Source: Gekko japonicus
Taxonomy: Eukaryota
Assembly (NCBI RefSeq): GCF_001447785.1
Contig: NW_015164680.1
Location: forward strand, 793,980 to 857,979
DNA: 64,000 nt
Reading direction: 5' to 3'
Positions 5,880 to 48,644 of the stretch are shown piece by piece. Position 1 is the stretch's first letter. Each line of letters starts with the position of its first letter. A program made the translations under genes and the position numbers. Below the pieces are notes generated by a model that was not told where the DNA came from, did not search any database, and saw only the letters and a program-made list of their open reading frames with translations.

Positions 5880-6134
5880 GGGGCGACGGACTACAGCTCC
5901 CAGCGTGCATCGGAAGAAAGGGAGGGGGAAGAGCGCGAGCGGCTCCGGCCACTAGTGCTCCGGCTCGGAAGAAGGCGGATCACGTGGGCCGGGAGGGGAT
6001 CGGAAGGTGCGAGCGACCCTCCGCTTATTGCTCTGGGATCGGTTCAAGTCCATATGGTGGGGGAATGTGGAGGGTCGCCGTTAGCCACGATGGCTGCACC
6101 CATTGTCTTGCCTCTGGCTGCCAGCTGCTAGGCG
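5880..6134 (+). promoter_or_regulatory. SLC37A3: CpG-rich promoter and putative non-coding exon 1 of SLC37A3 (donor GCG|GTAAGC after 6134)
   Basis: Local CpG/GC enrichment; ZNF143/THAP11-type motif ACTACAGCTCCCAGCGTGCAT 5890-5910; ETS-like CGGAAG at 5911, 5966 and 6001; E-box CACGTG 5981-5986; strong donor. The TSS is not resolvable. Confidence 0.7.
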
Positions 6135-16900: not shown

Positions 16901-19900
16901 AACAAAGGTTCGGGCTTCCCAGTGATCCCCCGCCTCCATTCTCAGCTATCATCCTGAAACAGGTGGCCCGAGCAATCCACAAACTTTTGCACTCGCACCA
17001 CGAAGTAGGAGAGCTCATCAGGATTCCCGTTGAACGTAGCTTCTATTAAATCCTTCGGGCGCGGCACCACCTGGCCCCGCGGGCTAGCCGGTCTCGGTGC
17101 AGGTATTGGGGCTTCTCCTGGTCTCGGGGCCGGCATGTCACCTGGTTGCGCCGGGGCTCTCGAGGCGGGCGCTGGTGGTCCCGCCGGCACGACTGGGGCA
17201 GCCGGGTGCCTCTCCAGCGCTTCCCCGACCGTTCTCGTTACCAAGTCTGGGATGGCCATGATGACCTCCTCCAGGGTCTGCTGTAGGTGCTGAATGTCAC
17301 GGTCAGCCACCTCCATGTGCTTGGCTAGTTCCAGTCCCTCGTCTGGGGACACCCAGCTACTCCGGGCCTTCGATCGCTCCGTCACCCATGAACTAGCAAC
17401 CGGTTCGAAGGGGGCTCCCAATGGAGGTAATCCCGCCGCAGCGGCGAGGCCCCTGTCATACAAGCTGTCTCTTGGGGGCCCCCCGTCAGTAGATAGGTCT
17501 CTGCCGTTGATTCGGGGTTGAACTGGGTCTGCCACTCTGTCCAGCCCGGTATCTCGGGGCCTGGGGAGTCAGGAACAGATGCGTCGAGGAGTACTTCGGG
17601 ATAGTCCCCCCCACTGCACCGGATAGCGGCGGCGTTGTAGACACTGGTACCGAGGCCGTGGTTACCACATCATCTGGCTCCTTGGGCTCATCCGGTTCTG
17701 TAGGCAAGGGTTTCCCCTCTCTGTCGCTCATCTCGGGTTGAGAGAGGCGCTGAGATAGGGAATGAAAGGATTCCTAACGGAATGTCGGGATCCACAGCAA
17801 GACAATGAAGTACACGCTTCTAGGAAGGTTTTACTTTTATTGAAAAGCTATAGATGCAGTAACATGAACACTGTTAGGAATGGCGGGGTACCTATGTGCA
17901 TAATAGGATATAGGGCTTTTGTATGCACCCCCCCACGTAGTGCCCAATTAGATGGGCTCCCGTGCGCGGGCATTTGGCAGATTTCTAACGGCTGTAGAAG
18001 CTGGGAACGTAAGAAGCTTCCCACAAAATCTAGACACACCAACTCCTCCACTGGCCTTGAGAGATATGCGTTACAGCAAAGAAGCAATTAAGCGCATGGG
18101 AAGGAATGCACAGCAATTAGAAACATACAGCACACTCACGGCAGCATAGCTGACAGTAGTAACCTTGAGTCAGTTAAACATTTACTCCGGTAAAACAGTG
18201 GTTGTGTGTCGCTGTGAGAGAGGGGAAAGGAAACCGGCTGCCTTCTGTACATCTTGCCTTCTAGGATTCTTTCCAGCTCTCTAGGGACTGGAGTTCCCTT
18301 TGAAAAGAAACAAGCGAGGCGGACAAGGCGTGAACAAGGCTGGCTGGCGTGGGAGAGGGCACTGAACAGAGTGGCAACCCCAGCACAGGGATGCCCAGAG
18401 CCGGAAGGCGAGTGGGTGTCTCAGGCTGTGGGTCAGGGCCAGTCTGGGGCCACGGGGAAGCTGGGATGGAACTAAAGCAAATGGCCCTGCTGCACCCTGC
18501 GGAGGGATAGGGGCCTGTTGAGGCTCCTCGGGAAGGCTGTGAAGAGGAATACAGGGACTTGTACTACTGTTCCAGTCCGTTTGGGTTGGGCGATGGACTC
18601 CTGCGGCTATACTGGCCCCTCTGTCCTAGGTTTGGTCGCAAATTTGAACTCATCTTGTCAGACCATTCCTCCATCCAGCTTAGTGTGGTGAGCTCTGGCT
18701 GCCAGTGGTTCTCCAAGGGCTCTGGCAAAGAGAGGATTTCCCCAGCACCTGTTGCAGGAAATCCTTATGACATGCCAGGGCTGGAACCTGGGAACCTCCC
18801 TGAGAACAAGGCTTGCGCTCTACCACTGAGCCACATCCCTTTCAGTGAACAGTTCTATAAATGCTTCATGTGATGGTTCAGGTGGGGTAGCCATGTTGGT
18901 CTGAAGCAACAGAACAAAGTTTGAGTCCACCGGCACCTTTAAGACCCACAAAGTTTATACCCAGAATTAAACTTTGTAGCTCTTAAAGGTGCCACTGGAC
19001 TCAAACTTTGTCATATTATTGTTGTATTTGCAAGGCAAGTTGCTTCATGTCTTGAATACTCACAACATGGAACTGTGGTTGATTCGTGCTTTTCATATTC
19101 ATAAAAACATTTTTTTTAAAGAGCAAACGACGCCTTAACCCAACACTCTGAGCTGTGCCTGTTATCGAAACCAAAGTGCAAAGAGGACTGCCCTCTAGTG
19201 GCAGGAGTCAGAGTTGCAGCAGTGGCTTTGTTTTGCTGATGAATATGCTCTAGTATTCGGTGACTGGCTGGTCTCTTGGTGAGGGCCACACGTCCACATT
19301 GAAGTGATGAAGCTGCCATTTCTGTCCCCCCTTAGTGGTCCGTACAGCAGTGTGAAGGTAGCTTATTCTGTCAGCAAATCTACAGTCCAACAGCTTTATT
19401 AGTTCTGTTTCTTCTCCCCGCAGCTATGGAACAGCAGCCATTTATTTCCTAACACCGGAGAAGCCACTCTCTTCCTTGGGACGCTGGACACCATCTTCCT
19501 GTTCTCCTATGCTGTGGTGGGTAGAACTTCTTTCCATACAAAGCCCAGGAGTGAAGACCAAGCCCACAAAGCGGGGGAATTCTTCCTTTTGTTACAAGTG
19601 GGGTTTTGTGCATCTCCAACCAGTGGAGCCCAGGAAACCTCATGGGATTGGCTGTGGGCTTGGCCTGCGACCCCAGAATATCAGAGCAGCCTTCGTGACT
19701 GTGTGGACGAACATCTGATAGGACAATTGAACAGAGGTGGACTGCTGGGGCCAGAGTAGGGGAGCTCAGAAGAGTTTTAGAGGGATCGAAATGGCCTTGG
19801 GATCTGAGCTGTTGCCCAAAATGATAGAACCAGCGTGGTGGTGTCGTTAGAACCCCGTTCAGCTGTGAAAGCTCACTTGGGCAATCGGTGCTCTGTCTCT

Positions 19901-22900: not shown

Positions 22901-25900
22901 CGCTTTCTTGCTGAGCAAGAATTGCCTCAAGCTGACCAGGCCAAGGAAGTTCTTGCAAAACGTTGTGCTGCCTAATTTTCTTTTAAGCCATCAATGATGA
23001 GTACAGGTATGCTCAGGCGAGCCGGACTAGTAACAAGTGGGCTTATATTGCAAAGCTGCCTTAAAACCTGGTGTTTACAGTGCCCCTTTCTTTCTGTCCA
23101 GGTGTTTGTCTTTGGGACGGTCTCGGAATGGCTGCATTTCTACCACAAGTGGTTCTACTGCTGCCTGTGGATTGTGAATGGCTTGCTGCAGTCCACTGGC
23201 TGGCCCTGCGTGGTGGCTGTCATGGGAAAGTGGTTCGGCAAAGCTGGGTATGTTGAGCGCCATCACCCACCTTTTTATTATTTTATCTTTCCTGTGTGTG
23301 TGTGTGTGTATGTATATATATGCATGTGAGACATTTTATTATCTTACTCCCTTTCTCGGTAACGTCCCTGAACTAACAACTTTGGTGCGCCTGGTCAAGG
23401 GAAGCGACCCATGAAGGGTTAACTGCTGATGCGTCTCCTGTTGTGGAGGAAGGAAAGAATGCAGTGGAAATCTTCCCTTCTCAGCACTCACCAGACCTGC
23501 TTCTGTCTCTGTCTTTTGCTGCCCAGGAGGGGTTTTGTGTTTGGCCTCTGGAGCGCCTGCGCATCGGTTGGCAACATCCTGGGAGCGTTCCTTGCATCCT
23601 CGGTTCTGCAGTACGGCTATGAGGTGGGTGGAGCTGCCTGCCACGCCCCTTCTGCACGGATAGGGACTGGCTGCATTCAGTAGTTACTTAGCATTCTTTG
23701 TGAAGGGGAAAATACACTAAGAAGTTGTGTTATGACAACAAAAGCTGTGTGGTGCGTGTATCGTGCCTGCTTTTCTAATGCTCTTGAGATTTTTCGTATG
23801 TGGCTGTTTGGAAGGAATCTGCACAACAGTTTCTGCTGTGTAGAAAGGCCTGGCATTTTTGCGAAGGAGGCCTCAACCACTTATTTTAAGATGAGGTTCC
23901 AAAGAGCCATGCATAAGAGATGCGTCTGTGCTTCTCTTCCCACTCCAGTATGCATTCTTGGTGACGGCATCGGTACAGTTTGCTGGTGGAGTTATTGTCT
24001 TCTTTGGCCTTGTGACGTCTCCCAAAGAAGTAGGTGAGTGAGAACAGATGACTTGGCTTCTCTCCCAACAAGCCAGCCTTCCAATACTTGATTGTTCCTC
24101 AGCTTGCTGTGCCCCCCAGCTCCTATTGCTGTGAAATGTGTTGTTTTGACAGTCAGTGTGGCACAGTAGTTCATGAGAAGTTCAAGGGCTTTGGGAGACT
24201 ACTCACCTGGTAATCTTGCACAAGTCGCCACCTCATGGAGTTACTCAGGGCCTAATCTTCAAGTTCTTGACAGAACAGCGCAGTGTAAATGTGAAAAGCT
24301 TCAAGCCCCATTCTTTATTTGCCACTTAGAGCAGTGGGACTGTTTCCCTGGCCAAGAATATCGGGCCAGTTCATAAATCTTATGTTTTCTTTCCCCCTGT
24401 GTGTTCCCAGCTCTCCCCAGAGATGCATTTGGCACAGACAGCCTGTCATGGCTACGGCCAAAGTACATCAGAGGCACTGGCTGTGATTGTAGCCATGGGG
24501 GGGGGGGGAGGGAATGTTTCCACAGTCATAAGAACATCAGAGATGCCAATGCTGGATCAGGCCAATGGCCCATCCAGTCCAACACTCTGTATCACACAGT
24601 GGCCAGAAATACCAGTGCCATCAGAAGGTTCACCAGTGGGGCCAGGACATTAGAAGCCCTCCCACTGTTGACCCCCCCAAGCACCAAGAAGACAGAGCAT
24701 CACTTGCCCCAGAGCCTCTATCTATACCTTGTGGCTAATAGCCACTGATGGACCGCTGCTCCATATGCCTACCTAATTCCCTTTTGAAGCCGTCCATGCT
24801 TGTAGCCGCCACCACTTCCTGTCACAGAAACTACTTCCAGAGACGCTGCAGTGAGACCCAGGTTGTGCACGTTCTGTTTGTAAATGCATTCTTGAGGCTG
24901 AGGCGCACGTTAGCGTCTCTGTGCAGATGCCTTCCCTGGGCCAGTTGGAACGCCCTGCACACAGGAAGAAGACTCTAAACAATCAAATTAGCACTTAGTA
25001 CTTAGTAAGTGTCGAGAGGGCTCCATAATCCTTACAACAGCCCTGTACAACAAACCCGTGGTGAAGAAAGAATAGCTAGCCTGTGGCCACTCTTGATGAA
25101 TTTTGTGGACGAGGTGAGATTTCGCTGCCTCCCAGATCACAGTTCACTTTTTTAGCTGCTGTGTTTCACCGGTTCCAAAACGGGTTTCCTTTCTCAGCTG
25201 GCTCCCGTGTTAAGAATGCTGGCTCCAGCAGGCCACCGGCTTAGCTTGAAGCCTGGTCCCTGTTGATGCTCATGAGAACAGTAAGCTCATGCTGTGTCCC
25301 TTCATCAGAACAATGTTGGTGGCTGAGGTTGTAATCTAAAATTAAATACCTCGTTTTGCATTTGCTCTGTGCGGGCATACGAGCTTAACTTCAGTGCACA
25401 TTTCCTCAGATCCTTATGTGCTAGTCTTGTGCGTTCTCTGTACCACCCAGCATTGCCCACGTAAGGGACTGGCTGATATTGGCACACCCACCCTGGAAAT
25501 GAAAAATGAGAAAAGAGCCCTTGGTTTTCTTAGGGGCTCTTCTTCAAGCTTAGCTTTGAGCTAGCTGGTTTGTGTGCACGCTTTTAGAAAATTCTTTCTT
25601 CTTCCAGTTTGGTGTAGTGGTTAAGTGTGCGGACTCTAATCTGGGAGAACCGGGTTTGATTCCCCACTCCGCCACTTGCAGCTGCTGGATGACCTTGGGC
25701 AAGCCATAGTTCTGTCAGAGCTGTTCTCTCAAGGACAGTTCTGGAAAGAGCTCTCTCAGCCCCACCTGTTGTGGGGAGGGGAAGGGAAAGGAGATTGTAA
25801 GACGCTCTGAGACTCTGAGTGAAAGGCGGGGTATAAATCCAATCTCTTTCTCCTCCTTCGTCTTCTTAGTCTGTTCTAATGGTCCTCAAATATGCATTCA

Positions 25901-28900
25901 CGGGCAACTCTGCCACTGGGAAATCCAACCCCAGTCGCTTAGGGAGTTCACGAATATGTTGTGTCTTCCCGTTAATGGCCAGACACTCAGAAAAGGCAGA
26001 GCTGCCCTTACCTGAATCGCCCATACAAGCCCCATCTCGTCAGATCTCGGAAGCTAAGTAGGGCCGACCCTGGCAAGTACTTGGAAGGGTGACCTCCAAT
26101 GAATACCAGGGCTGGGACGCAGAGGCATCCAATAATAATCCACTCCTCTGAAACATCCAAGCTCCACTAGGGGTCGCCAGACGTCAACCATAAATCCCAG
26201 TCATACACACCCATGCAAAATCTCACCAAAGAAAAAGGGAAAGGCAGAGCTGACAACGGCATGAGAAAGGATCGTACTTTTCATGAGCACTAGAAGATCA
26301 GGGGTAGAGACTGGTGACTCTCTCTGCAGAACAGCAGCTTGAAGAGTGTCTTAAGCCAAAGAGGACGATGGAGATATGGGAGAGCAAGTGAGCCGGTCGG
26401 AAGGGGAGGAACGATGACCCAAAAGAGTGAGCACGGACTTGTGCCAGGAGAGAGGGGATCTGGTTTGTTTTCAATTTTTCCATTCTGTGGATTCTAGGCC
26501 TCCCCGAAGCTGGCGAAGAGGGTGATGGTGTTGGGGCTGCTGAAGAAGATGTCAGTGAGCCCTTAATGGGTGGGAGCGACAACTACGACGAAGATGATCA
26601 AAATTACACCGTTCAGACTGCTGATCCGAGCAGTATCCCCCAACCCAAAGCTATTGGGTTTTTCCAGGCTTGTTGCCTGCCCGGTGTGATGTTGGTAAGG
26701 GATCCCTCTACCTTATATGTTGTCGAAGGCTTTCACAGCCGGAGTTCATTAGTTGCTGTAGATTATCCGGGATGTGTGGCCGTGGTCTTGGCATTGTAGA
26801 ACCTGACGTTTCAACTAATGATCCCTCTACCTATGTAATCTGAACACACCATGATGTTTTCCCTGGAGAATGCTGTAAGGCTCTAGTGAGAACAGGGCAG
26901 TGTCTCTCAATGCTTAGAGGAATTTATTTAACTTTGAGGTGCCTGGGTTGCCTGGGGTGTGTGTGTGAGAGAGAGAGCCTTTTCTGCATGCAAATCGTGC
27001 GCACTGCATTTTCTGTAGAAGGGCGATCAGTTTGTTCAGAGTTTCCCATTTTATCCTCCCCATGGTCCCATGAAGGCTTAAAGCCAACCAGGCAAGTTTC
27101 ATGGCAGAGCAGGGATTTGAACTAGCACCCCCTCCCCCGGAGGGCTTCCCGTCCAGCGCTCTGTCTGCCCAGCTCCCTGATGGTTTCTCCCTTTGGTCCT
27201 TCTTTCAGTATTCCTTGGCCTACGCCTGCTTGAAACTGGTGAACTACTCCTTCTTCTTCTGGCTGCCCTTCTACCTCAGCAGCAACTTTGGGTGGAAGGA
27301 GGCAGAAGCCGACAGGCTCTCCATCTGGTACGATGTCGGGGGGATTGTAGGTACGTGAAGCAAACTTCAGCTTTGGCTTTCTTGGGGCCTGGAAACTTAT
27401 ACTGGGGAAATGGGGGGGTCCCGACTCTGACAGTTTTTTTTTGGGTTGTCTTCACACCAAAACTCCCGACGATGGTTTAATCCCGCTTTTAAACCCTGGC
27501 TTGTCAGCAAGAAACAGTCCTTAGTGTGTTAGAAGTGACCGTGTTCATGCATTGCAACAAACTGTGGTCAGATTGAAGACTTCCTGTTCAGTCTCTGTTT
27601 GCATAGAGGAAGAGGAAAAAGGAGGCCGGGGGAGAAGTGCCTAAGTCTGAGAATGTACCAGACTTTGTTCATGATGTCTTAATGTACCCTCCTAGAAAGC
27701 TGTGATATCTTACTCCAGGTGAAACTGCAAGGCTGCTTAGGATGTTACCACCCCCCCCCCCAATGCCCTCTGCATTCATCAAATCATAAAGTTGGAAGGG
27801 ACCTCCAGGGTCATGTAGTCCAACCCCCGGCACAATGCAGGAAATTCACAAATACCCCCCTGCACCCCAGTGACCCCTGCTCCACGCCCAGATGATGACA
27901 CACACACAAACACCTCCAGGATCTCCAGCCAAATTGGCCTGGAGAAAAACTGCTTCCTGACCCCAAAGTGGCGATCAGCATTTCCCTGGGTGTATAAGAA
28001 GGGGCCACAAGAACTAAGCACTGGTGCAACCCTTCCTGCCCTCCCTCTCATGATCCACCTAAGTTCACAGAATCAGCATTGCTGTCAGATGGCCATCTAG
28101 CCTCTGTTCGAAAACCTCCAAAGAAGGAGAGTCCACCACCTACCGAGGAAGCCTGTTCCACTGAGGAACAACTCTAACTGTCAAAAAGTTCTTCCTAATG
28201 TTTAGCCGAAAACTCTTCTGATTTAATTTCAACCCATTGGTTCTGGTCCAACCTTCTGGGGCAACAGGAAACAACTCTGCACCATCCTCTATATGACAGC
28301 CCTTCAAGGACTTGAAGATGGTTATATCCCCTCCTGACTTGAAGGTCCTGTGTTCCCTTTGTTTCTGCAGGTGGCACCATCCAAGGCTTAATCTCTGATA
28401 TGCTGCAGAAGAGAGCTCCGGTGCTAGCCATTAGCCTCATCTTGGCGGTTGGGTCTCTCTTTGGATACAGCCGTGAGTCCTTTCCTGCTTTGGATGGGGA
28501 GTTGGGGGGGGGGTGCAGGCTGCTTGTCATCTTATCCAGAAACTGTAAACCAGAGCAGTTAAGTCTCAAAATGCAAGACTTTTTCTTTTGCTTTCTGGTT
28601 AATTTTGACCTGGCCATACAAAGCAGTCCACCCTAAGGATTTGCCCAGTTTCTATTTAAGCACTTAACTCCCTAAGAAATGAGAGAATTTTCCAGCCTAG
28701 GAGTGTCAGGTCACTGTTCTTGCAGGAGCCTGTCCTGCAAAGTCCGTCAGTGTGAGCCGAGCCGAATTGGAGGGGGTAGAGAGCCTTTACCGCTGTGGCA
28801 GATACGTGTTTTAAGGTTCTCATTCCCTCTTCCAGTGATGAATTCTGACTCTTGGGGGGCTTCGCTTTTTCTTCCCCATCTCTCTAGGGTCACCAAACAA

Positions 28901-31900
28901 CAAAGTCATCAATGCCGTTATCATGGCTGTCACAGGTAAGAGATCAGTGCGGCTTTTTCAGTATCCCTTTTAGACCTAGTGTCAGCAGAGGTAACACATA
29001 CTGGTACTGGCAGCCTCAAGAGCGGGGGCTCCTGATAATATAGGCCTACTAAAGGTGCAGCCCAGCAAGATTCTGTTCATTCTGTAAGGCTGTGGCAGTC
29101 AAATCTGGTGCCCCTCAGCATCAAGGAGAGAGGCTGCATAAGTCAAAGAGGCACTTTGGCGAGCAGTGCTGCTAAGAGCATTAGAAGGGTTGCTTCCGAT
29201 GCAAAAGTTTATCTCTAGCACCAGCCAGATGCCTCCGGGACGTCTGCAAGAGGGACACGCAGGCCAAAGCCTCCCCTTCCCCCGTTGTGTTCCCCAGCAG
29301 CTGGAATTTGTAGACTTATTACCTCTGATCATCTCACCTGTATAATTTTGTCCGCCCTTCCTCTGGGAAGTTCTGAGCAGTAATATGTGTATAACACACG
29401 CCCCCTTTATATTCACGGTACCGTGAGGGTCTGCGTGAAGTGCCTGGTCAGAGCTGCTTATAATTTTTCTGACCAGCCCGCTATACAAATCTACAGAAGT
29501 CTCTTCAGGGTATTTGTTTTACTTCTTTGTCAAGGGTATTTGTAAGGACCACTGCTAGTGTATTTGCTTCACCATTAAACAGTTAGGCACCACGGCTTGT
29601 TAACTTCAAAACAGAACAGGCTTTATTTACAGAAAACACAACAGGGGGATAGAAGCTTTACACGGAGGATAATTTGTTTCTTTTCGGGCTGAACTTGGTT
29701 TTTACTTAGGCAGAATGCTTGCTGCTTTTACTTTAACACAGATGTTAAACAGTTCACTACACCCTCTGATGATCACACCCTCCTGTACGAGTGGTGGATG
29801 GTTGATGGGCAGCAGAAGTTTGAATGGTGGTAGATGGTCGAAGGGTGGTAGAATTTTGAAGAGCAGTGAACGGTTGAAGGCTGGTAGAAGTTTGAAGGGT
29901 GGTGGAGAGTCGACGGGTGGTAGAAGTTTGAATGGTGGTGGACGGTCCAGTGGTGGTAGAAGTTTGAAGAGTGGTAGATGGTTGAAGGGTGGTAGAAGTC
30001 TGAAGGGCAGTGGATGGTCGAAGGGTGGTAGAAGTTTGAAGGGCAGCAGTTGGTTGAAGGGTGGTAGACATCTGAAGGACAGCAGATGGTTGAAGAGTGG
30101 CAGAAGTTTGAAGGGTATCATATGGTATAAAAGTGATAGAAGTCTGAAGGGTGGTGGTTGGTCGAAGGGTTTTTGCTTCCACTGTGATATGTCTGGCATC
30201 ACTACACTCTGAAAGATATGTGTAAAATCAGATCACTGACTTCTTGTACCAACAGTATTAGAATATCTTAACCAAATCTTAACCAAACCTTAACCAAACA
30301 AAGCCAGTTTGGTGTAGTGGTTAAGTGCGCGGACTCTAATCTGGGAGAACCGGGTTTGATTCCCCACTCCTCCACTTGCACCTGGCTGGATGACCTTGGG
30401 CAAGCCGTAGCTCTGATAAGAGCTGTCCTTGAAAAAGAGCAGTTTCTGTCAAGAGCTCTCTCAGCCCCACCTCCCTCACACGGTGTCTGTTGTGGGGAGG
30501 GGAAGGGAAAGGAGTTTGTAAGCCGCTCTGAGACACCTTTGGGTAGTGAAGGGCGGGGTATAAATCCAATCTCTTCTTCTCAGCAATTCAGGCATTCTCA
30601 CCACCCCCCATTTTACATGGTCCAATAGACATCTCCCAGCTCCATGTTGTCAGCTGCCGAGCAGTGCATGGTGTTGGTGTGGGGAGGCCTGGCAGAGCCT
30701 CTGAACTATCCACCTACCTGGTTACCTCTGGTAAATACGTTCTGCCTCCAGGCAACCAGCCCAAGGGTCTATTGTAAACTGGAAGAATCAGTTCTTTGTT
30801 CTTTCAGCCACCGCCATGTAGACTGGGGAAATGAGAAGAGGCAGTAATTTTTTTGTGGGTCTCTTTGTGGTAGTTTCCTATTCCTTATGCTCTCTCCTAG
30901 TGTTCTTATCCATCTCCCAGGCAGGGCTGAACTTTAGAGAACAAAATACTGGAGATATTGGGAAAGTCTGGCGAGTTGACACAGCTGGGCAGCTGTCAAT
31001 TCAGTGGCTCCTTACTGGGGGGGGTGACCTTGCAACGGGCACTGTCTTTAATTTAGGCAGACCTACCTCACAAAAACGGGAGATGTTTGTTGCCTCAAGC
31101 TCCTTGAGGGAAGGACACAATGGAAACATATGGCAGAACAGATATATTCCCAAACTTATCAGCCTAGCTGTACAAAAGAAGCAACAACTGGAAAGGGTTG
31201 TTATGAAGGGATGTGGCGTGATGTGAGGCTCTTTGAACCAAACTGATATATCCGGAACTGAAGCTCTCTGAGGCTGTTAAGGGCGGGAAAACATGAGAGT
31301 GTTGCCTGTAAGCTGTGTCAAGGGAACATGTAGAGGCAGGGAAAATGTCCTGGTAGAATGGGGCTGGCACATTGCTGGTAGCGCAGTCGCAGATGGAGGT
31401 AATGGTTTAAAAGAATAATCCACTTTTAATCTGGATTTTGTACAGCTGGGAAAGTCCACTAGAGAATGAAGTTGTGGTGGAAGTAAGGCAATGCCCTTTT
31501 AAACTGAGTACGATATTAGAGTGCCTGTGTTTTATTTTAACTAAAGTTTCAAAGTGCTTTTTAGCATGTTTCAAAGGTACCCTTTTGAATTCCCCATGGA
31601 AATCCCTTTAAAAAAAATGCTGCTAGTTGTGTGGATGTGATGCCTGGATTGGGTTTTTAGTGGTGTAAAAGGGACCCTGGAGAGAATCCCTGCCCCCCCT
31701 TTGACCAGGGGCCTTTGGTGTCTGCAGGGAGCCCTGATCCTGGGTGGCATCCTCCAAGGCCCCCAGACTGGAGGGGGGTGGTTACGGTTTGGCTAGCCTG
31801 AAAATCTTTCCATGCTCACTTCCGAGGCTGGGAAAAGGCCATGGTTTTTGAAAGCAGAACGAGGCACTCCTAAGTCCTTCTGTTGAGCACGCTGCTGTCA

Positions 31901-34900
31901 CACGCTGCGAAGTAGAAGGGTAATCCTACCAAACGCTCCCAGGTTTGTTCAGGGAAGCCCTCCCTGGGAATCACGCAAATGGTGCTGCCTGTGCCAACAC
32001 GGCCATTGCTCCGTAGTGGTTGCCAAGCCCACGTAATGAAGACGGTGTCCTTGGTTAGTGAAGCAATGCATGGTCTAACTGCAGATGGTACACAACTGTG
32101 TTAGAAGAGACACTTCCCTTTCTGGATGTGGGAAAGCCTCGTCTATACCTGCTCCTTTCCTCTTAGGAGCTCACGGTGACACACATAAACCCTCTCTCAT
32201 CCTCAAAAGTGCCTTGTGAGGTTGCTGATTTAGGCGGAGAGCGTGACCGTCCCAAGGCCACTCTCTGAGCTAAGTTGGGGGGCTTGAACCTGGTCATCTG
32301 GGTCCAATCCAACACTCTAGCCCAGTGACACTCACTCAGTGGCTCAGGAGCCACAGGTTCCCCAGTGTGGCACCTGCCTCATATTTCAGGAGAGTGGGCA
32401 AGGGTCCTTGGCTGGTGGGGCTTGTGACTGGCAGGCGATTCAAACCTTCAAATGGCCACTGGCAAAGGAACGGGCAAGCTGTGAGCCTCCCTGAGGTGCA
32501 GGCCTCATGGCAGGGATGGAAGCAAGTGTGGCTCTTTTGGTCAGTGGTAACTGGGAAATGTGGCTGTCCGCAAAGCTGTGGATGGGGTACCACTGCTCTA
32601 GCCACTGTACCAGGCCGGCCTTCCTCTGAAGATGTCTACGGCACACAACCGTGCCACATCTTTGGTTTGCATCCTGTACTTTTTTTCTGCCCTCGCCTGG
32701 ATAGCTCAGGCTGGCCCAGTCCCATCAGACCTCAGGAGCTAAGAAGGGTCAACCTTGGTCAGTATTTGGAGGGGAGACCTCCGAGGAAGTCCAGAGTCGT
32801 AGAACAGAGGCAGGCAATGGCGAACCACCTCTGAACGTCTCTCACCTTGAAAACCCCATGGGGTTGCAATGAGTCGGCTGCGACTTGACTGCACTTTCCA
32901 CTCCACCCCCCCCCCACACACACACTTCTTCCTCATGTGGATTTACTCTGCTTCAGAAAGGGATTGAAACCTGTAGGATTAGGATTTCCATAATCACTTG
33001 CCAGCCCGAATGTTCATTCTGATTTTTAAAATTGTAACAATCTGAGTTCGTGTCCAGGGAAGGTTTTGAATTGCATGCTGCCTTCTGAAATGGCATTTTC
33101 ACAACACACAGATTCACGAGGCTGGATTACCGGCCCCAGTACTGAATTTCTCGCTTGAAGGGTTAATGTCACTTCCTTTCTGTGACTCTCCCGAGAATTC
33201 CATCAAAACTAATGGTTTGCATAGTAGTGTACTTAAAGTCCTCTGGCAGCCAATGGCTGTAACACGCAGAAGCATCGTCTCACAATCCAACAAAGGAAAA
33301 AAAAATTAAAGAACTGGTTTTGGAGGGAAACCTTGTGTGGTGCAAGAAGGTAATTAAGATTCTGGTGAAGTCGCGAGTTCCTGTAACAAAGCGCCAGGGG
33401 ATTCCTCTGGGGCTGTAGATGGCTGCCTCATTTTCAGGAAGGTTTTGAACAGGCCCCAGGAATTGTACCAAGAAACTTTATTGGTAGTGCTCTCTGGTGA
33501 GAGGGGGTGGGGGTGGGGTGAGTCCCCGCTTGCTTTATACTGTCTCTGGGGTGGTTTTCCCTTGATGAGCCAATCATTTGCCCCCTCGCATGAAGGCAGC
33601 GTTGATGGTTCTCCGCGCTGTCATGTTGGCCATTGTCTGACACTCACAATGGAAAACATCCTCTGTAGAATTAATCGTATCGAGTGTGTTCACCTTGCCC
33701 ATTCCCTAGTTTTTTAACTTCCCCATTGCCTCAGGAACCGGGGCTTTGTGTCTGACAAATTGCTTCCTCCTTTACCTGAGTTATCGGTGACAATCCATTT
33801 CCATAGCAACCAGCTGAGATTCCACGAGTTGGGCTTTCTCCCCTAGTGGGAACCAAGCAGGTGGAGTATGCTGAAAATCTCAACAACAATAAAAGAAATA
33901 ATACAGAGAAGATGCGACTCCCCCCTTCCTTCGTTTGACCTGTCTGCGCTGTTGGAAACAAAGGGAGTGACAGAATGCTTCAGGGCAGAATCTATACATA
34001 GGTTTTTTTGATTTTACACACACAGGAGTGATAAAGCTCCCAAGAAATGCTTTCTGCATACAATTTAACATATTTGTGTTCTTTAAATGAGTGTTCCAGA
34101 ACTCTTTGGGTTTTGCATCTAAAGCTGCACATCCTTTAGGAAGCTGACTAGTGGTTTTGTTCTTATGTTAAATTCAATTTTAGTTTATGAAGCTGCATCA
34201 ACGTTTTGCGAAGTATAGAGATTTTTTTAAAAAATGAGGGGGAAACCTGGGGTAGCTCTATGGCAGAGCATGAAGAAAGAAGAAAAAGTCTCATTTGTGT
34301 GTTCTGCATCCCTTGATGGCCTTTCAACTCTCGAATGTGTTGTGTTTCTGTTTCAGTACCTGGTGTCCTTGATCCAAGAAAAGCTGGGATGGATGTGGGT
34401 TTTCTATTTCTTCATTTTAATGGTAAGGACCTTACTGCTGGATAACAGGTGGCAGCAGTGCCTTTCACCAGCTTCATTCCTTCCGGAGAGGGGGGAAGGG
34501 ATGGGCAGACGGACATCTAGATTAGATTACTACAATGTGCTCTACATGAGGCTGGCCTTGAAGATTGTTCAGAAACTACATTTAGTACAGAATGCTGTGG
34601 CCAGAATGCTGACTGACGTGGGTTGTGGGGACCATATCACTCCTGTCTTGTTCCCTCTACATGAGCTCCCAGTTTGTTTCCCAGGCCCAGTTCAGGGTAA
34701 TGATATTGACCCTTAAAGCCCTGTACTGCTTGGGGCCAGCATACTTTAAGGACTGTCGTCTTCCATATGAACCCACCCATCCATTCCGGTCATCTTCAAA
34801 GGCCTTGCTTCAGGAGCCCTGGCCATCTGAGGCTTGACAGGTGTCAACCTGAGAAAGGGCCTTCTTGGTGGTGGCATCAAAACTTTAGAACGCTCTCCCC

Positions 34901-35205
34901 AGGGAGATTCATCTGTCACCCTCTGTTGTTGTCTTCCACCAGCAGGTGAAGACTTTTTTGGTTTTTGTTTGGCACACCCACAACAACTGTTTTGATTGGC
35001 ATACCCAATCTCTTTTTCTACTGTGTGAAATAACTGTAGAACAGCTGCCAGAATGGCTTTGAACTGCACTGTGCCCTGGTCTCATGGTCCTTAATTCCAT
35101 TTCTTTTCACAGACGAGTTCAACCGTCCTGTTCATCACACCATTGATTGTGAGGGAAATAAGTGCGCTGCTGAGAGAGAGACCCGCACTCAGGTTGGCTG
35201 GCTGA
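13812..35205 (+). CDS. SLC37A3: SLC37A3 sugar phosphate exchanger 3 (MFS), spliced CDS join(13812-13906,15479-15593,19424-19516,21570-21653,23102-23247,23527-23623,23949-24033,26498-26694,27209-27350,28371-28472,28888-28935,[exon 13 not found],34357-34422,35113-35205)
   Basis: Exon translations match recalled vertebrate SLC37A3 (HHHVAVFLLTFFSYSLLHASRKTFSNVK, NGLLQSTGWPCVVAVMG, YSLAYACLKLVNYSFFFWLPFYL, LGWMWVFYFFILM). All introns are GT-AG and phases are consistent except across the missing exon. Confidence 0.96.
14490..14715 (+). mobile_element. 5S rRNA-derived SINE with (CA)n tail
   Basis: GCCCGATCTTGTCAGATCTCGGAAGTTAAGCAGGG...GGGAGACC resembles the 5S internal promoter region; other copies at about 26000-26215, 32690-32925, 2650-2850, and on the minus strand 990-1120 and 60440-60610. 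Confidence 0.75.
15479..15593 (+). CDS. SLC37A3: SLC37A3 exon 3: (S)YSLLHASRKTFSNVKVSISSQWTPSDLNDTALKLQPYE
   Basis: attcccag| acceptor, |gtgagg donor, homology. Confidence 0.95.
15886..16295 (+). mobile_element. Two adjacent copies of a second tRNA-derived SINE family
   Basis: GGGGCCATGGCTCAATGGTAGA...GGTTCAATTCCC head; related copies at 1-100, 7079-7292, 7475-7650 and 18650-18840 (minus). Confidence 0.7.
16417..18155 (-). mobile_element. Ty3/Gypsy (sushi/Tf1-like) LTR retrotransposon, internally deleted and 3'-truncated: 5' LTR 17783-18155, gag 17731-16942 (frameshifted), protease C-terminus and RT N-terminus 16939-16417
   Basis: LTR termini TGTCAG...CCGACA with AATAAA; gag motif FNGNPDELSYF; protease motif LVLGAPWLHGHDP; RT motifs PKGRIY...GFIRPASSPFAAP...KKKDGG/LRLCTDYR. 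Confidence 0.92.
18878..19010. repeat. Palindromic (probably Penelope-derived) repeat; 96-nt imperfect hairpin 18915-19010
   Basis: CAAAGTTTGAGTCC...GGCACCTTTAAGA arms in inverted orientation; related copies at about 36685-36862 and 56605-56700. Confidence 0.6.
19424..19516 (+). CDS. SLC37A3: SLC37A3 exon 4: LWNSSHLFPNTGEATLFLGTLDTIFLFSYAV
   Basis: ccccgcag| acceptor, |gtgggt donor, homology. Confidence 0.95.
20161..20421 (+). mobile_element. Same tRNA-derived SINE family
   Basis: Alignment by eye to 8431-8702. Confidence 0.8.
21570..21653 (+). CDS. SLC37A3: SLC37A3 exon 5: GLFVSGIVGDRLNMRLVLSFGMCSSALV
   Basis: tttgtag| acceptor, |gtaagt donor, MFS motif A-like GIVGDRLN. Confidence 0.95.
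22450..22698. mobile_element. MITE-like repeat with AGGGTTGCCA...TGGCA(A/T)CC(C/T)T ends
   Basis: Homologous copies at about 46676-46885, 47611-48185 (LTR-interrupted), 49206-49320, 56475-56602 and 61469-61688. Confidence 0.65.
23102..23247 (+). CDS. SLC37A3: SLC37A3 exon 6: VFVFGTVSEWLHFYHKWFYCCLWIVNGLLQSTGWPCVVAVMGKWFGKAG
   Basis: tgtccag| acceptor, |gtatgt donor, homology. Confidence 0.96.
23527..23623 (+). CDS. SLC37A3: SLC37A3 exon 7: RGFVFGLWSACASVGNILGAFLASSVLQYGYE
   Basis: gcccag| acceptor, |gtgggt donor, homology. Confidence 0.96.
23949..24033 (+). CDS. SLC37A3: SLC37A3 exon 8: YAFLVTASVQFAGGVIVFFGLVTSPKEV(G)
   Basis: actccag| acceptor, |gtgagt donor, homology. Confidence 0.95.
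24527..24822 (-). mobile_element. CR1 LINE 3' end
   Basis: CATAAGAACAT tail; matches 56161-56473. Confidence 0.8.
25605..25868 (+). mobile_element. Same tRNA-derived SINE family
   Basis: Alignment by eye. Confidence 0.8.
26498..26694 (+). CDS. SLC37A3: SLC37A3 exon 9 (acidic central loop): LPEAGEEGDG...PKAIGFFQACCLPGVML
   Basis: attctag| acceptor, |gtaagg donor, homology in the 3' half. Confidence 0.93.
26714..26819. mobile_element. Short Penelope-like fragment flanked by a 13-bp direct repeat
   Basis: GTTGTCGAAGGCTTTCACAGCCGG...CCTGACGTTTC; GATCCCTCTACCT at 26701-26713 and 26820-26832. Confidence 0.55.
27209..27350 (+). CDS. SLC37A3: SLC37A3 exon 10: YSLAYACLKLVNYSFFFWLPFYLSSNFGWKEAEADRLSIWYDVGGIV(G)
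   Basis: ctttcag| acceptor, |gtacgt donor, homology. Confidence 0.96.
27775..28335 (-). mobile_element. CR1 LINE 3' fragment (second subfamily)
   Basis: RT C-terminal motifs on the minus strand (AGGAAGAACTTTTTGACAGTTAGAG; WNRLPR); TTCCAACTTTATGATTT end. Confidence 0.8.
28371..28472 (+). CDS. SLC37A3: SLC37A3 exon 11: GTIQGLISDMLQKRAPVLAISLILAVGSLFGYS(R)
   Basis: ttctgcag| acceptor, |gtgagt donor, homology. Confidence 0.95.
28888..28935 (+). CDS. SLC37A3: SLC37A3 exon 12: SPNNKVINAVIMAVT(G), ends in phase 1
   Basis: tctctag| acceptor, |gtaaga donor, homology. Confidence 0.93.
29541..30254 (-). mobile_element. Solo LTR (714 bp) with internal tandem array
   Basis: TG...CA termini, perfect 5-bp TSD GTATT (29536-29540 / 30255-30259), minus-strand AATAAA near 29625. 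Confidence 0.75.
29790..30167. repeat. Minisatellite of 21 x 18-bp units alternating GGTGGTAGAAGTTTGAAG / GGTGGTAGATGGTYGAAG (36-bp higher-order period)
   Basis: Units counted directly; no indels. Confidence 0.93.
30302..30580 (+). mobile_element. Same tRNA-derived SINE family
   Basis: Alignment by eye. Confidence 0.8.
34357..34422 (+). CDS. SLC37A3: SLC37A3 exon 14: YLVSLIQEKLGWMWVFYFFILM (starts in phase 0)
   Basis: tttcag| acceptor, |gtaagg donor, near identity to recalled orthologues. Confidence 0.95.
34507..34980 (+). mobile_element. L2 LINE 3' fragment in intron 14
   Basis: SRLDYYNVLY...KLHLVQNAVARML...HITPVL motif. Confidence 0.8.
35113..35205 (+). CDS. SLC37A3: SLC37A3 last exon coding part: TSSTVLFITPLIVREISALLRERPALRLAG*
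   Basis: tttcacag| acceptor, PLIVREI motif, TGA 35203-35205. Confidence 0.93.
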   Translation, partial: TSSTVLFITPLIVREISALLRERPALRLAG

Positions 35206-38200
35206 CTGTCCTGGTCACTGTTACATGGAGCCCTTCAGGGAAGGCCAGCGAAGAGAGAGCGCTTATTGGAATTTCCCACGGTTCACGTGTACCTTTTGTT
35301 TTCTTTTTAACCATCTGCTGAGGTCAGAGTTGGTTGAAAATAACTCTGAAAGGATTTGCTGCTGGACGGTTGTTGATACGTGAATGGTTTAATCCATCTG
35401 AAGATGTGCTGTGGTCTTCTGCGGGAGTGTGCTTCTTGACGAGCTTGTTGACTGGGCCAGAGAGGATTGCTTTCTTTTCAGTTATACCTCACGTTCTCAG
35501 GGCCGGCTCGTGCAATCATCAGAATCGAACGGTGAAGATGTTCCCGGAATGGAGTGCTTCAGGTTGCTGGTGGCTGGGAACATACGTTGTGAATGTTTCC
35601 TCACAAGCCAAAACTCCTTGTCCCTAGAAAAGTGGTGTGTCTGGGAGAGGAGTTTAGGTTTGCCCTCTTCCTGTTGGGCTAGGCGGGTCTGTGTGAAGGA
35701 AGCTTTTATGGGTGGTTGGAAAGCATCCACGTGTACAACCTCTCCTCATGCAGCCACAAGGGGTACAGTCCAGGAAACACTTCAACTGCTCGTTTCTGTG
35801 TGAATTGGCCCTCCTAAATTCTTCGTGCCATCTGTCTACTTGCATTTTTGTGCTGTGTTCAAACACCTTACAGTGACCAGAGGCACAAAACTGACAGCCT
35901 TTTTTGCTACTTCTTTAGCAAATGGGGTAAAAAAAAGAGAGGCCCTTTTGTTACTTGACACTAAAGCATCACTTTCTGTCCACTTTGTGCCACTTGGTCG
36001 TTGGCTTTTTGGAAGCTGACAGAACCGGCTGTCTGCTTCCTGCCTGGCCCTATCATTACGAAGTGGACATCAGGAAACCTTGAATCTGTGGAAGCAGCCC
36101 AGGTCCTTACTAGCCTGCCAGAAGAAAGTAGAGGTTGTGTTTTTATTTCCGTTTTAAATATCTGTCCCATTCAGCTATCGTGAGCTGTTTTCTCTCCAAC
36201 AATGCCGGACACATTCCATGCTTGATGAATTCTTCTGTCGATGTGCCTGCAGTGTGAGAAATGAGGGTGTGTCTTTGGAGACGTGCGTACTAAGCATTTC
36301 TTAGAAAAAGTAGTCAGTTTACCATGGTCCTTAATTTTAAGGTGATTGTTGATGATAGGATTTTGAATGCACTTGAGAGACTGGTAGGAAAGGGGGGAGG
36401 GAGCTCTGAATTACCCGAGTGTTATCCATTTCTGAACAGCAAAAATGATTTGCTGTCCTGTGTTGGAGACACTTTGCGATCCTCAGAGGCCTGCTTCCTC
36501 AGTGAGGAATTATCCAAGAGAATATGGCTGATCTGTCCTTTCGTCTGCACCAAAGATTTTCTGCTGGTGAAACACGTAAAAAAGGATGGGGATGCTCTCA
36601 GAACTGTTGTCATGTTCTCTTTCTCACCCCCTCCCCCAGTCTAGTGTTTAATTAAGCTTCCCTTGTACCAAGTATCATTCTGCTGAGAGTCCAATAGCAC
36701 CTTTGAGACCGACCAAGATTTGGGGAGGTCTATGCTTTCGTGAGTCAAAGCTCCCTTTGTCAGAGATCTTGACTCTCAAAAGCTTATACTGTGAAAAATT
36801 TGTTGGTCCCTAAGATGCCCCTGGACTCGAATCTGGCTCTTCTACTGCAGACCAGCATGGCTGAAATTGCCCTCCTGAAATTATGCTGCGAGTCTCCCTG
36901 CTCCATTAATAGCAACCAGTGCTATGGGGTGAGAAAGTGCTTGGTGCAATGATGCTGGGACTTAAACAAGTTGAGCTAGACGTCATGGAGAACAAGGGGC
37001 GGCTTATTTCAGCGGCAGCCTTGCAGGGGTTTTTGCTTTATGTCATGTTTTAGGTCTGCCTTATAAATCAAGTCAGAGTAAAAAGCCTCACCTCCTTGGG
37101 TGGATTTAGTTCAGTGAATTCGGTCGCATAGCTTCCTGGTCCTGATTCAGTGCTGATCATCTGTCTGTGGCATCTAGAAAAGCATTGTGAGTTTGATTTT
37201 TGGGTCATTTGGTTGGCTGGCCAGTTCTCAGCCTGCTTTGGAAAAACTGAACATTGTACCTGAGGCCTTGACACCTCCTCACCGATTTCACTTTCGGCCC
37301 CCCACCTTCTTGCTGCTGAGACTGAGGGAGGAAGAAACACTTAAATTAGCTATACATTTTAGAGGGGAAAAAGGGATTCTTTCTCTCATTCCAAAAATGC
37401 CTTTTTTAAAAACACTTAAATGTACAGTAGTACCTTTTTAATTTATGAATGTAAATGTCGAATCATGTGACTGCGGTTGAGTGTACATAGCTGGTACTGT
37501 TTTCTGAATTGTGTGTTGCTCTGTTGTGCTGCTTCGTTTCCACAAGAAGCGATTGCTTCATTTTTAGACGTCTTTTAAAAGGCTGGATGTTTGGCTTTAA
37601 CCCTGATCATCCAATCAGTGAGGGGGTAGAGAAGTCATCATCCAATCAGTGAGGGGGTAGAGAAGCCATCGACTGGGTTTTCTCTTCTGCCTTTGCTCCT
37701 TCCCGTTTTGTGGCCATATCAGCTGTTCTATGTTCAAGAAAGAAGTTGGTTTGCCAAAGGGTTTCCTCTAATCGCTGGAATAACTTTAAAAACAAACCAC
37801 TTATAATAGTGTGGTTTTCAAGATGGGAAGTGGCAGACTCCAGAGTTTTAGGCTTTTTGTGAGTTTTAGGGTATGCTTCGCACAATCACTTTTTCTATCT
37901 CGTGCTGTTTTTGTAACTCAGTGGAGGAAATCTGTGCAGAACTGGGTCTTGTGAAAGGGGTCCAATGCTTGCTTAGCTCAGCTCCTCTGTCCTCACACTA
38001 CAAGCAGTTGTGTTTGGCCTACAGCTCCAGAATCCAAGTTAGACGTTTCAGTCCGAGTGAATGTCTCGACTGAGATAATTTATCCTGCCTCAGAATGGCT
38101 GCAGGGATTTCCACTCACAATGCAGACCGTGTCCTAGGGGAGCTTTGCAGCATACTGGATCCCGCAGGTCTCCCAGTACTGCCCCCTCCCTGCACAAAGA

Positions 38201-40410: not shown

Positions 40411-42084
40411 TACAAAGAAATATAGGGGAGGGACTATAACTAAGGAGAAAGAAAAGCAAACCACACTAAACTAAAACCCCAAGAGGAGGAGATCTTTTCA
40501 CTGTTAGTAAACATGTTAGTATAATTAGTTTTATTATCACAATATACTTGTTGAGTTCTTGCTTATAACAGTTCGCTTCTTATATGCTATTTTGTTAGTT
40601 GTTTTGAGAGAAGTCTCTGATCATCTTCTTAGCCTTCATTTTAAAAGGCCATTTTCCAAGTCCTTCTGCCTTTACTTCGGCTTTCTATCTCTAAAATCGT
40701 ATACCACTCTGGCAGGTCCCGCACCCTTTTCTGCCGCAGAATCCTCTTCCGTTCCTGAGGTAGCAGAGTCACTCGACTTCGATTCTCCCTCTTTGGACTC
40801 ATCATCTGTCCCCAACTGGCGTTTCAAAAATTCTTTAGCTTTTAAAAGTGGAATCTATCTTCTCTCTTCTATCGTTGATCTTAAAGATGACACCCTCTGG
40901 GACCGCCCATCTGTACGATATTCCATTAGTTTGAAGAAAAGAAATTAATTCCTTGTAATTTTTCCTCTTTTGTCTAATTTCAAATGGAATGTCCTTTAAA
41001 GTTTTAATGGTAACATTTCCCATTTTCAGTGGGGTTGCTGATGTTGCTTTTAAGATGGCATCCCTGGTTTGTCTTCTTGAAAACTTGACCACTATTTCTC
41101 CAGGTAGGCTATTTTTTTAATATAGTTGGAGTATGCCCTATAGGCTATCTCCATTTCGTTTACAAGTTCCTCCGCTGTTAAGCCTACTACTGGAGCGATG
41201 ATCTCACTAAGCACTTTCTTCAAGTCTTCCCGATCTGTTTCAGGAACCCCCTGAAACCTGGGAATCATGTTAGCTTTTTCCATCTGAAGCTGCAAGACAC
41301 GGTTCTCTTGGCAATTCTGCTTCATTTCAACCTCTCCCATCCTTTTCTTCAACTTCTTACTTGTGGTGTCAATCTCTTTAATTTTTTCGTTTGCCTGCTC
41401 CACTTTTTTCTCCGTCTCGTTCAGCTGGAGCTGCTGTGCCGCCAAGTTTTTATTCATCACGGTCAATTGCTGGTTAATACCATTGAGTTGTTCCATCACC
41501 GGCTTGAGCATATCCGCCAGGAGTTTGAGGACATCTGCTCCCTCTTCCGGTCTCGGACTCTGCCCGCCCGGCTTTGTTTTAAACTTTCTCTGCTGGGCTG
41601 CCATCTTTCCCGTTTTGTTTACAATTTCTGCCGCTTCCCCTCAACTCGGAAAACTCGCCAAATGACTTTGCAGATCAGATAAGTCTCTCAAAACACTTTC
41701 GGTTTACTTCCTCCCCACTCCCCCTTCGTGTCCGTTAGCGCTCTTTCGCAAAAGAGGCATCCCTCTTTGCAATCTCTGTTTCCAATCGCGGGGGGGATAG
41801 CTTTTCAAACTACTCCGTTTTATTCAGAACTCACGTTCATTGCCGGCCAGTTCAACTGACCACGCTCGGTTTTTCACCATTCCACTTGATCTCCGGCACT
41901 TGTCCCGGTCAGTCCAGCTTGTGCCCGTCGGGGCAGAGGGGAGCCTCAATTCTCCGGCATTATGCCATCGAAGACGCTACCCCTCAAAAGCCCCCTGGCC
42001 TGGAGCCTATCGCAAAGGCTCCGTGGGTGTGCGATTCGCCCTCCTCCGTCAAGCAAAAATAACTAGAGAGAAACCAGATGTTCC
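40385..42084 (-). mobile_element. L1-clade element with 5' UTR and ORF1 only (HAL1-like); ORF1 41604-40672 with two frameshifts
   Basis: Coiled coil followed by RFQGVPE...VKFSRRQTRDAIL...KDIPFEIRQKR...YRWAVPEG (L1 ORF1p-type RRM/CTD); AATAAA plus A-run about 280 nt after the stop; no ORF2. Confidence 0.8.
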
Positions 42085-44169: not shown

Positions 44170-44995
44170 GAACATAAGAGAAGCCAATGTTGGATCTGGC
44201 CAATGGCCCATCCAGTCCAACACTATCACACAGTGGGCCAAAATGCCAGGTACCATCAGGAGGTCCAGCAGTGGGGCCAGGACACGAGAAGCCCTTCCAC
44301 TGCTGCCCCCCCCCCCCAACAACAAAGANNNNNNNNNNNNNNNNNNNNNNNNNNNNNNNNNNNNNNNNNNNNAGAATACAATGCATCACTTGCCCTAGAC
44401 TGAGAGTTCCTATCTATACCTTGTGGCTAATAGCCACTGATGGACCTCTGCTCCATATGTTTATCCCGTTCCCTCTTGAAGCTGTCCATGCTTGTAGCCG
44501 CCACCACCTCCTGTGGCAGTGAATTCCATGTGTTAATTGCTCTTTGGGTGAAGAAGTACTTCCTTTTATCTGTTCTAACCCGACTGCTCAGCAACTTCAT
44601 TGAGTGCCCACGAGAAAAGGAGGGAGAAAAGCACCTCTTTACCTGCTCTATCCCATGCATAATCTTATAAACCTCAATCATGTCCCCCCTCAGCCATCGT
44701 TTCTCCAAGCTAAAGAGCCCCAAGTACTTTAACCTTTCTTCATAGGGAAAGTGTTCAACCCTTTTATCATTCGAGTTGCCCTTTTCTGCACTTTTTCCAA
44801 TGCTATAATATCTTTTTTGAGGGGTGGTGATGACCAGAACTATACACAGTATTCCAAATGAGGTCTCACCATCAATTTATACAGGGGCATTACAATACTG
44901 GCTGATTCGTTTTCAGTTCCTTTCCTAATAATCCTCAGCATACTGTTGGCCTTTTTTATTGCAGTCACACACTGTCCCAACATTTTCAGTGAGTT
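44170..44995 (-). mobile_element. CR1 LINE 3' fragment spanning an assembly gap
   Basis: GLFSLEKRWLRGDMIEVYKIMHG...RKYFFTQRAINTWNSLP. Confidence 0.9.
44329..44372. other. Assembly gap (N run)
   Basis: 44 N. Confidence 1.
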
Positions 44996-48439: not shown

Positions 48440-48644
48440 NNNNNNNNNNNNNNNNNNNNNNNNNNNNNNNNNNNNNNNNNNNNNNNNNNNNNNNNNNNNN
48501 NNNNNNNNNNNNNNNNNNNNNNNNNNNNNNNNNNNNNNNNNNNNNNNNNNNNNNNNNNNNNNNNNNNNNNNNNNNNNNNNNNNNNNNNNNNNNNNNNNNN
48601 NNNNNNNNNNNNNNNNNNNNNNNNNNNNNNNNNNNNNNNNNNNN
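48440..48644. other. Assembly gap (N run) with a low-quality poly-G left flank
   Basis: 205 N. Confidence 1.

Follow-up and report, generated by a model that had tools for sequence, protein, structure and literature searches.

A gap-free assembly mis-join very probably accounts for the missing SLC37A3 exon 13 of Gekko japonicus

Exon 13 of SLC37A3 (51 codons) has no tblastn counterpart on either strand of the window, the whole 64 kb stretch of Gekko japonicus DNA analysed here, and its absence very probably stems from a chimeric mis-join, free of N, in a draft built from short reads. A true gene loss is most likely not the cause: the replaced stretch of intron appears to have held exon 13, and the gene is therefore probably intact in the animal. 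Exons are numbered as in the preliminary description of this DNA.

When residues 301-351 of Gekko kuhli SLC37A3 (P0037), the corresponding 51 aa, served as the query, the top tblastn match in the 64 kb window had an E-value of 0.27 at 29% identity and lay outside the interval between exons 12 and 14; as a sensitivity control, the same type of search recovered the 16-codon exon 12 at an E-value of 2e-4. A diverged exon 13 hidden inside the interval, which the preliminary description had named as a refuting finding, is thus ruled out. Its claims of a missing exon and of an interval without N were borne out as well, the only N runs of the window lying at 44329-44372 and 48440-48644, and it was right that exon 12 ends in phase 1, that the next exon starts in phase 0 (the splice sites of the two exons being canonical) and that exons 14 and 15 are intact in the canonical frame. 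The gene is assigned to SLC37A3 by high identity and colinear exons relative to named SLC37A3 proteins. The RefSeq model of G. japonicus (P0039 in our homologue set) finds its counterpart in thirteen coding exons of the window, most of them being 91-100% identical to G. kuhli, and the model contains an MFS_1 domain (PF07690) that scores 119.9 bits, above the curated cut-off. Among relatives with a solved structure, SLC37A2 (9ucm) is the nearest. According to PMC6021172, SLC37A3 (sugar phosphate exchanger 3) is the lysosomal partner of ATRAID in mammals. Compared with known SLC37A3, the 51-aa segment is missing only in the assembled copy, and the protein itself gives no sign of difference. Our literature search returned no paper pairing SLC37A3 with gecko, and SLC37 does not occur in the main text of PMC10776941.

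Table 1. Features of the SLC37A3 locus and of the suspect block (positions in the window)
Feature	Positions	Strand	Remarks
SLC37A3 exon 10	27209..27350	+	142 nt; 100% to P0039; canonical splice sites
SLC37A3 exon 11	28371..28472	+	102 nt
SLC37A3 exon 12	28888..28935	+	48 nt; ends in phase 1; GT donor at 28936; canonical splice sites
LTR-like multi-copy repeat end	29541..29788	-	TG...CA from 29777 to 29541; AATAAA and purine-rich tract adjoining the junction
Junction at which public DNA contigs part from the window	29788..29789	.	X1 record 3, X2 record 11
Orphan chitotriosidase-like last exon with ~90 nt of upstream intron	29789..30301	-	Likely foreign to the locus
High-copy SINE, likely Squam3B3	30302..30580	+	Putative right-hand switch point of the mis-join
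SLC37A3 exon 14	34357..34422	+	66 nt; phase 0; canonical splice sites
SLC37A3 exon 15, coding part up to the stop codon	35113..35205	+	Match of X4 record 24 begins at 35112

The roughly 50-aa segment is conserved, as the preliminary description had maintained. Among 182 proteins of at least 340 aa, 168 with both flanking parts were counted, and 167 of these keep the segment, including four named geckos. P0039 alone deviates: this RefSeq model, built on the very locus studied here, fills the missing segment with intron DNA (a read-through together with 15 codons at 30629-30673), and its MFS_1 match ends at profile position 305, compared with 328 in intact relatives. Among the best 120 of 651 and the best 120 of 356 matches, none was a G. 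japonicus protein containing the segment, a blank that carries no weight.

Lengths and depths in contig set X4 fit a transcript that includes the exon. We guess the contigs of this set to be RNA, and record 24, which matches 35112-36000 at a depth of 121.3, is likely spliced: it has a 265-nt overhang to the left of exon 15, which divides into 65 nt of exon 14, 152 further bases and the 48 nt of exon 12. The length expected for exon 13 is likewise 152 nt (51 codons minus one base). This figure presumes that record 24 starts exactly where exon 12 does, as is backed by the intronic contig of record 18, which ends at 28917, 30 nt into that exon; a start up to 18 nt deeper in exon 12 would give an insert of 152-170 nt. 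In a depth bookkeeping over five bins, a model of exon 12, 152 new bases and exon 14 predicted 20.1/31.4/0/0/26.6, and 18.8/34.6/5.2/5.0/33.7 was observed against a background of 3-7. The same bookkeeping rejects exon skipping, for which bins one and two should have shown 32.2 and 19.3, as well as intron retention and the RefSeq patch. Contig depth is a poor measure by the tool's own warning, and the argument is one of lengths and summed depths, from which the 152 extra bases appear to be exon 13. The raw RNA run X21, with exon depths near zero (0.2-3), is uninformative. These data also bear on a lineage-wide loss of exon 13 in G. japonicus, with the transporter remodelled through exon skipping or the RefSeq replacement exons. 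The absence of the exon from the window and the RefSeq model P0039 are all that speak for it; this reading is extremely improbable given that the skipping and patch models both fail the observed X4 depths, that the congener G. kuhli and the three other named geckos retain the segment nearly unchanged, and that the patch residues consist of intron read-through and a stretch (30629-30673) with contig depth at background level only.

Public G. japonicus DNA contigs from two samples of one study (X1 and X2) place a break inside the interval. Outside 29789-30301 both differ from the window by ~1.3%, and they therefore do not come from the sequenced animal. The two runs depart from the assembly at one fixed point (2/2): X1 record 3 (1600 nt) starts to match exactly at 29789, after 1,065 unmatched bases of its own, and X2 record 11 (757 nt) does so at the same base, after 281 unmatched ones. 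The junction found in the window is absent from the listed pieces of both samples. To the right of it, the 29789-30301 piece shows no difference to X1 over 535 nt or to X2 over 446 nt, compared with 72 differences in 5,333 nt (X1) and 63 in 4,878 nt (X2) elsewhere (Poisson P of 7e-4 and 3e-3, respectively, for a piece without differences), though such runs do occur by chance, as in X2 record 14 (0 in 264). Listed contig pieces bridge 3,971 of the 5,421 positions between exons 12 and 14, leaving four stretches without a bridging piece (29134-29818, 30293-30587, 32625-32889 and 34152-34356), so exon 13 could sit in one other than the first. A second X2 break, at 31739, is ruled out as the site of a mis-join, being crossed by X1 record 5 and X4 record 22. 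All of the joints listed (15 of 532) have one end in the SINE, and 24 of 2,797 loose ends are listed; the lack of an exon 12-14 joint among them carries no weight, as repeats swamp the listing.

The sequence that begins at the break likely does not belong to the SLC37A3 locus. On the minus strand, 29790-30209 aligns to residues 555-713 of the chitotriosidase-1-like protein XP_056700837.1 of Euleptes europaea (52% identity, 159 columns), a GH18 protein (PF00704) with which it has in common a C-terminal Ser/Thr-rich exon and the same non-repeat start. An 11-residue non-repeat anchor at the exon start is identical to the Euleptes protein at 8/11 positions and scores 44, the highest of 127,936 window 11-mers (runner-up 32). 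The splice acceptor lies just upstream of 30209, and acceptor and reading frame are intact. The Ser/Thr-rich array at 29791-30170 (36 bp x 10.6 units) is part of this exon and the break falls at its edge, which disfavours a collapse within the array itself. Unlike the Euleptes gene, the window has the last exon alone, cut at 29789: nothing in the window matches residues 1-552 of XP_056700837.1 (best E 0.97), and with the catalytic-domain exons not found there, this is an orphan piece and not a nested gene. Searches of the ESM Atlas and Pfam gave nothing for the repeat ORF, and a literature search on gecko chitinase/CHIA gave no relevant paper by title. One might suppose that the chitinase-like copy truly resides in the SLC37A3 intron as an old duplicated fragment, and that the assembly dropped only a block of at least 1,065 bases with exon 13 at 29788|29789, in which case the absence of the exon would still be an artefact. 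The contig breaks are equally compatible with an insertion at 29789, and X2 record 11 has a depth of 69 compared with ~40 in its neighbours; against this, X1 record 3, at 62.7, lies inside its neighbours' range of 52-74 with no signal of a second copy, the piece has zero differences compared with 1.3% on each side, and its intact frame and acceptor are unlike those of a decaying orphan copy. We regard such a simple collapse as very unlikely.

The suspect block is flanked by multi-copy repeats, with depth peaks at 29408-29708 and 30302-30580. The bin 29408-29708 reaches a contig depth of 2263 (X1) and 1712 (X2) against ~40-125 in neighbouring unique bins. By its anatomy (TG...CA ends, a polyadenylation signal and a purine tract), the repeat at this left edge is a putative LTR; no second copy that could be its paired LTR is present in the window, and no target-site duplication was seen by eye. 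The SINE on the right, with extreme contig depth, has four other window copies at 83-89% over ~275 nt and a partial fifth. It is likely Squam3B3, judging by length, CTT tail and copy number relative to the published description; PMC7983390 gives ~180,000 copies in G. japonicus and rare target-site duplications, and the two elements are alike in measuring ~270-280 nt, ending in a CTT tail, being present in very many copies and seldom showing such duplications.

The preliminary description had left two branches, mis-assembly or a real deletion. We favour the former because both DNA samples break at 29789, the chitinase-like exon looks foreign to the locus and the likely RNA contig has 152 bases to spare. 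The short-read contig would have stopped at the LTR-like repeat near 29788, and the gap would then have been closed from the right, via the very high-copy SINE and on into sequence flanking a different copy of it, located at a chitinase locus, inserting ~0.5 kb of foreign DNA and losing the true block. This route through the SINE is a proposed one, and no contig displays a switch there. In PMC4673495 and PMC10776941, the earlier G. japonicus draft is described as Illumina/SOAPdenovo/SSPACE with a contig N50 of 29,574 bp. False gene and exon losses are common in short-read vertebrate drafts according to Kim et al. 2022 (PMC9516821); as in the cases given there, a coding segment next to repeats is missing and the annotation has been made to work around it, but the present interval is free of N and the block has seemingly been replaced by DNA of another gene.

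The deletion branch fared worse. Apart from a lineage-wide loss, it comprises an ectopic recombination or repair event between repeats that swapped the exon 13 block for a chitinase exon fragment in the sequenced animal, giving a segregating natural null. In such an allele, likely a null, direct splicing from exon 12 to 14 would cause a frameshift and append an aberrant tail of 91 residues; with the new stop 209 nt beyond the final exon junction, decay of the transcript would not be expected. The junction has no N and the compared samples are other animals, ~1.3% different, as such an allele would allow, but it requires two repeat-bounded breakpoints as well as DNA inserted from a different locus, the junction is missing from the listed pieces of both DNA samples, exons 14-15 are still intact in the canonical frame, and errors of this kind abound in short-read drafts. 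We consider it very unlikely; if it were real, the allele would amount to a natural knockout of a lysosomal transporter about which little is understood.

With a mis-join as the preferred explanation, the practical lesson is that an interval without any N may be a chimeric join all the same, and that a stray exon from a different gene, lying between repeats, flags such a join. Damage may also have reached the corresponding chitinase locus of this draft. The RefSeq protein XP_015264795.1 carries ~50 spurious residues and is for that reason unsuited to selection scans, gene-loss catalogues or structure work.

The preliminary description had reported SLC37A3 exon 13 missing from an interval that contains no N, between an exon 12 ending in phase 1 and a next exon starting in phase 0, and each of these statements was borne out. 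When the 51 residues of this segment in Gekko kuhli (residues 301-351 of the protein P0037) were searched against both strands of the window, nothing matched (best E 0.27); a search of this type does detect the 16-codon exon 12, at E 2e-4. Exon 10 (27209-27349), used as query, retrieved SLC37A3 proteins from across vertebrates. Of 182 fetched proteins with at least 340 aa, 168 had both flanks, and the segment is kept in 167 of them (82 of 83 in an earlier count on a smaller protein set). In four named geckos and two other close relatives it is identical to that of G. kuhli or differs by a single change. The sole exception among the 168 is the G. japonicus RefSeq model XP_015264795.1 (P0039). 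A lineage-wide loss, with which that one model would agree and the retention in the other geckos would not, is exceedingly improbable. Direct splicing from exon 12 to exon 14 would shift the frame and give 91 aberrant residues.

The RefSeq model agrees essentially base for base with the window's exons and includes three stretches that match the window but occur in no other homologue (see table); it was therefore derived from the same sequence as the window. Exon 13 is replaced in it by intron-derived residues, patching a hole.

Features around the exon 12 to exon 14 interval, with RNA contig (X4) depth for stretches private to the RefSeq model
Feature	Position	Description	Depth in X4
SLC37A3 exon 12	28888-28935	ends in phase 1	
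Model-only stretch	28936-28946	intron read-through after exon 12	background only
SINE, very high-copy	30302-30580	right of chitinase-like piece	
Model-only stretch	30629-30673	15-codon piece	background only
Model-only stretch	about 34255-34356	intron sequence directly 5' of exon 14	background only
SLC37A3 exon 14	34357-34422	starts in phase 0	

Elsewhere in the gene, the window has Lys in the motif directly before FGKAG (23102-23248), either a base error or a real variant, where all six other proteins of one comparison set have Asn. The CpG-rich sequence at 4001-6000, upstream of the first coding exon, is likely a promoter or non-coding first exon. Two GC- and CpG-rich open frames inside an SLC37A3 intron (16348-17568, minus strand) gave no Pfam match at E 0.01; in appearance they resemble what is left of gag and of protease/RT in a Gypsy-type LTR retrotransposon. 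A 182-aa coiled-coil frame at 41095-41640 (minus strand), whose Pfam matches are only weak coiled-coil ones under the cut-off, resembles a LINE ORF1.

Four of 24 sequence runs were compared with window 27000-36000, among them two guessed-DNA contig sets (X1 and X2) from one study, whose samples are not independent of each other. In one X1 contig (record 3; 1,600 nt) the match to the window begins at contig base 1066 and covers 29789-30323; in one X2 contig (record 11; 757 nt) it begins at contig base 282 and covers 29789-30234. Both samples therefore have other DNA on the left side of 29789, with a length of 1,065 bases or more. The matching parts show no difference from the window; the remaining pieces listed show 72 differences in 5,333 bases and 63 in 4,878 (Poisson P 7e-4 and 3e-3). 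X2 record 14 likewise shows none (0 in 264). Together, the long pieces listed (24 of about 338,670) bridge 3,971 of the 5,421 interval positions, leaving four stretches unbridged, and among these pieces 29789 is the only site where two samples positively depart from the window. We consider a real private rearranged allele very unlikely. Both DNA samples differ locally from the window by about 1.3%. At 31739, X2 record 12 departs with 367 unmatched bases and X1 and X4 contigs continue across, likely an insertion polymorphism; X1 has two neighbouring deletions relative to the window, of 13 and 12 bases, in 33562-33590.

To the right of the break, on the minus strand, there is an acceptor directly upstream of 30209, after which a Ser/Thr-rich reading frame stays open as far as the junction; it is composed of a 36-bp array (10.6 copies). 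Among 1.84 billion representatives the frame had 57 matches, mostly low-complexity look-alikes, the second being a chitotriosidase-1-like GH18 protein of the gecko Euleptes europaea (residues 555-713 aligned, 52%). The two share a non-repeat start (8 of 11 residues) whose score of 44 is the highest among 127,936 window 11-mers and among the 57 matches (next 27), and residues 1-552 of the Euleptes protein are unmatched within the window (best E 0.97). We therefore regard 29789-30301 as a lone chitinase-like last exon in an SLC37A3 intron; where this draft assembles the true chitinase gene, the piece may be absent or duplicated. The SINE on its right agrees in length and tail with Squam3B3 as given in PMC7983390, and the multi-copy repeat on its left appears LTR-like by its anatomy. 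A simple collapse, in which the chitinase piece would really belong to this intron and the absence of exon 13 would still be an artefact, is very unlikely.

In the guessed-RNA contig set X4, record 24 (3,420 nt, depth 121.3) aligns to 35112-36000 and extends a further 265 nt leftward, starting exactly at the exon 15 edge; because of this position and the depth of only 3-7 in intron pieces, it behaves as a spliced transcript. Subtracting the remaining 65 exon 14 bases leaves 200. An intronic contig stops at 28917, 30 bases inside exon 12, and at word length 31 such an end indicates that the graph branches at the first base of the exon. Removing the 48 exon 12 bases gives 152, which is also the length of 51 codons less the one base that lies in exon 12; the insert would be 152-170 nt if the branch sits deeper in exon 12. 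Depths in five bins (18.8, 34.6, 5.2, 5.0 and 33.7) are fitted, among the models compared, only by exon 12, new bases and exon 14 (20.1, 31.4, 0, 0 and 26.6 before background). Under exon skipping, bins one and two would have 32.2 and 19.3; intron retention would give 27 and 80 in bins four and five, and the RefSeq patch would give 18 in bin three and 68 in bin five. Thus this contig, RNA by guess, has putative room for 152 bases. Exon coverage in the raw RNA run X21 was too low to be informative, and the joint and loose-end tables of the contig comparison were dominated by repeats.

Between the two readings left by the preliminary description, real deletion or silent mis-assembly, the break at 29788|29789, the foreign-looking exon and the room in the RNA favour the second. 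Very probably, a short-read contig stopped at the LTR-like repeat, and the gap was bridged by way of the SINE, a putative switch point, into a different locus; the true block, holding exon 13 at a putative position in the intron, was lost without Ns. False exon losses of short-read vertebrate drafts, as reported in PMC9516821, work alike. The earlier G. japonicus draft is described in PMC4673495 as a SOAPdenovo and SSPACE assembly of Illumina reads (contig N50 29,574 bp), and a long-read assembly is recorded in PMC10776941. Our search found no literature on SLC37A3 in geckos; genome-paper supplements could bear on the gene model. The function of SLC37A3 is known from mammals (PMC6021172). The exon 13 loss is very probably not a real feature, and as an SLC37A3 orthologue the gene is ordinary.
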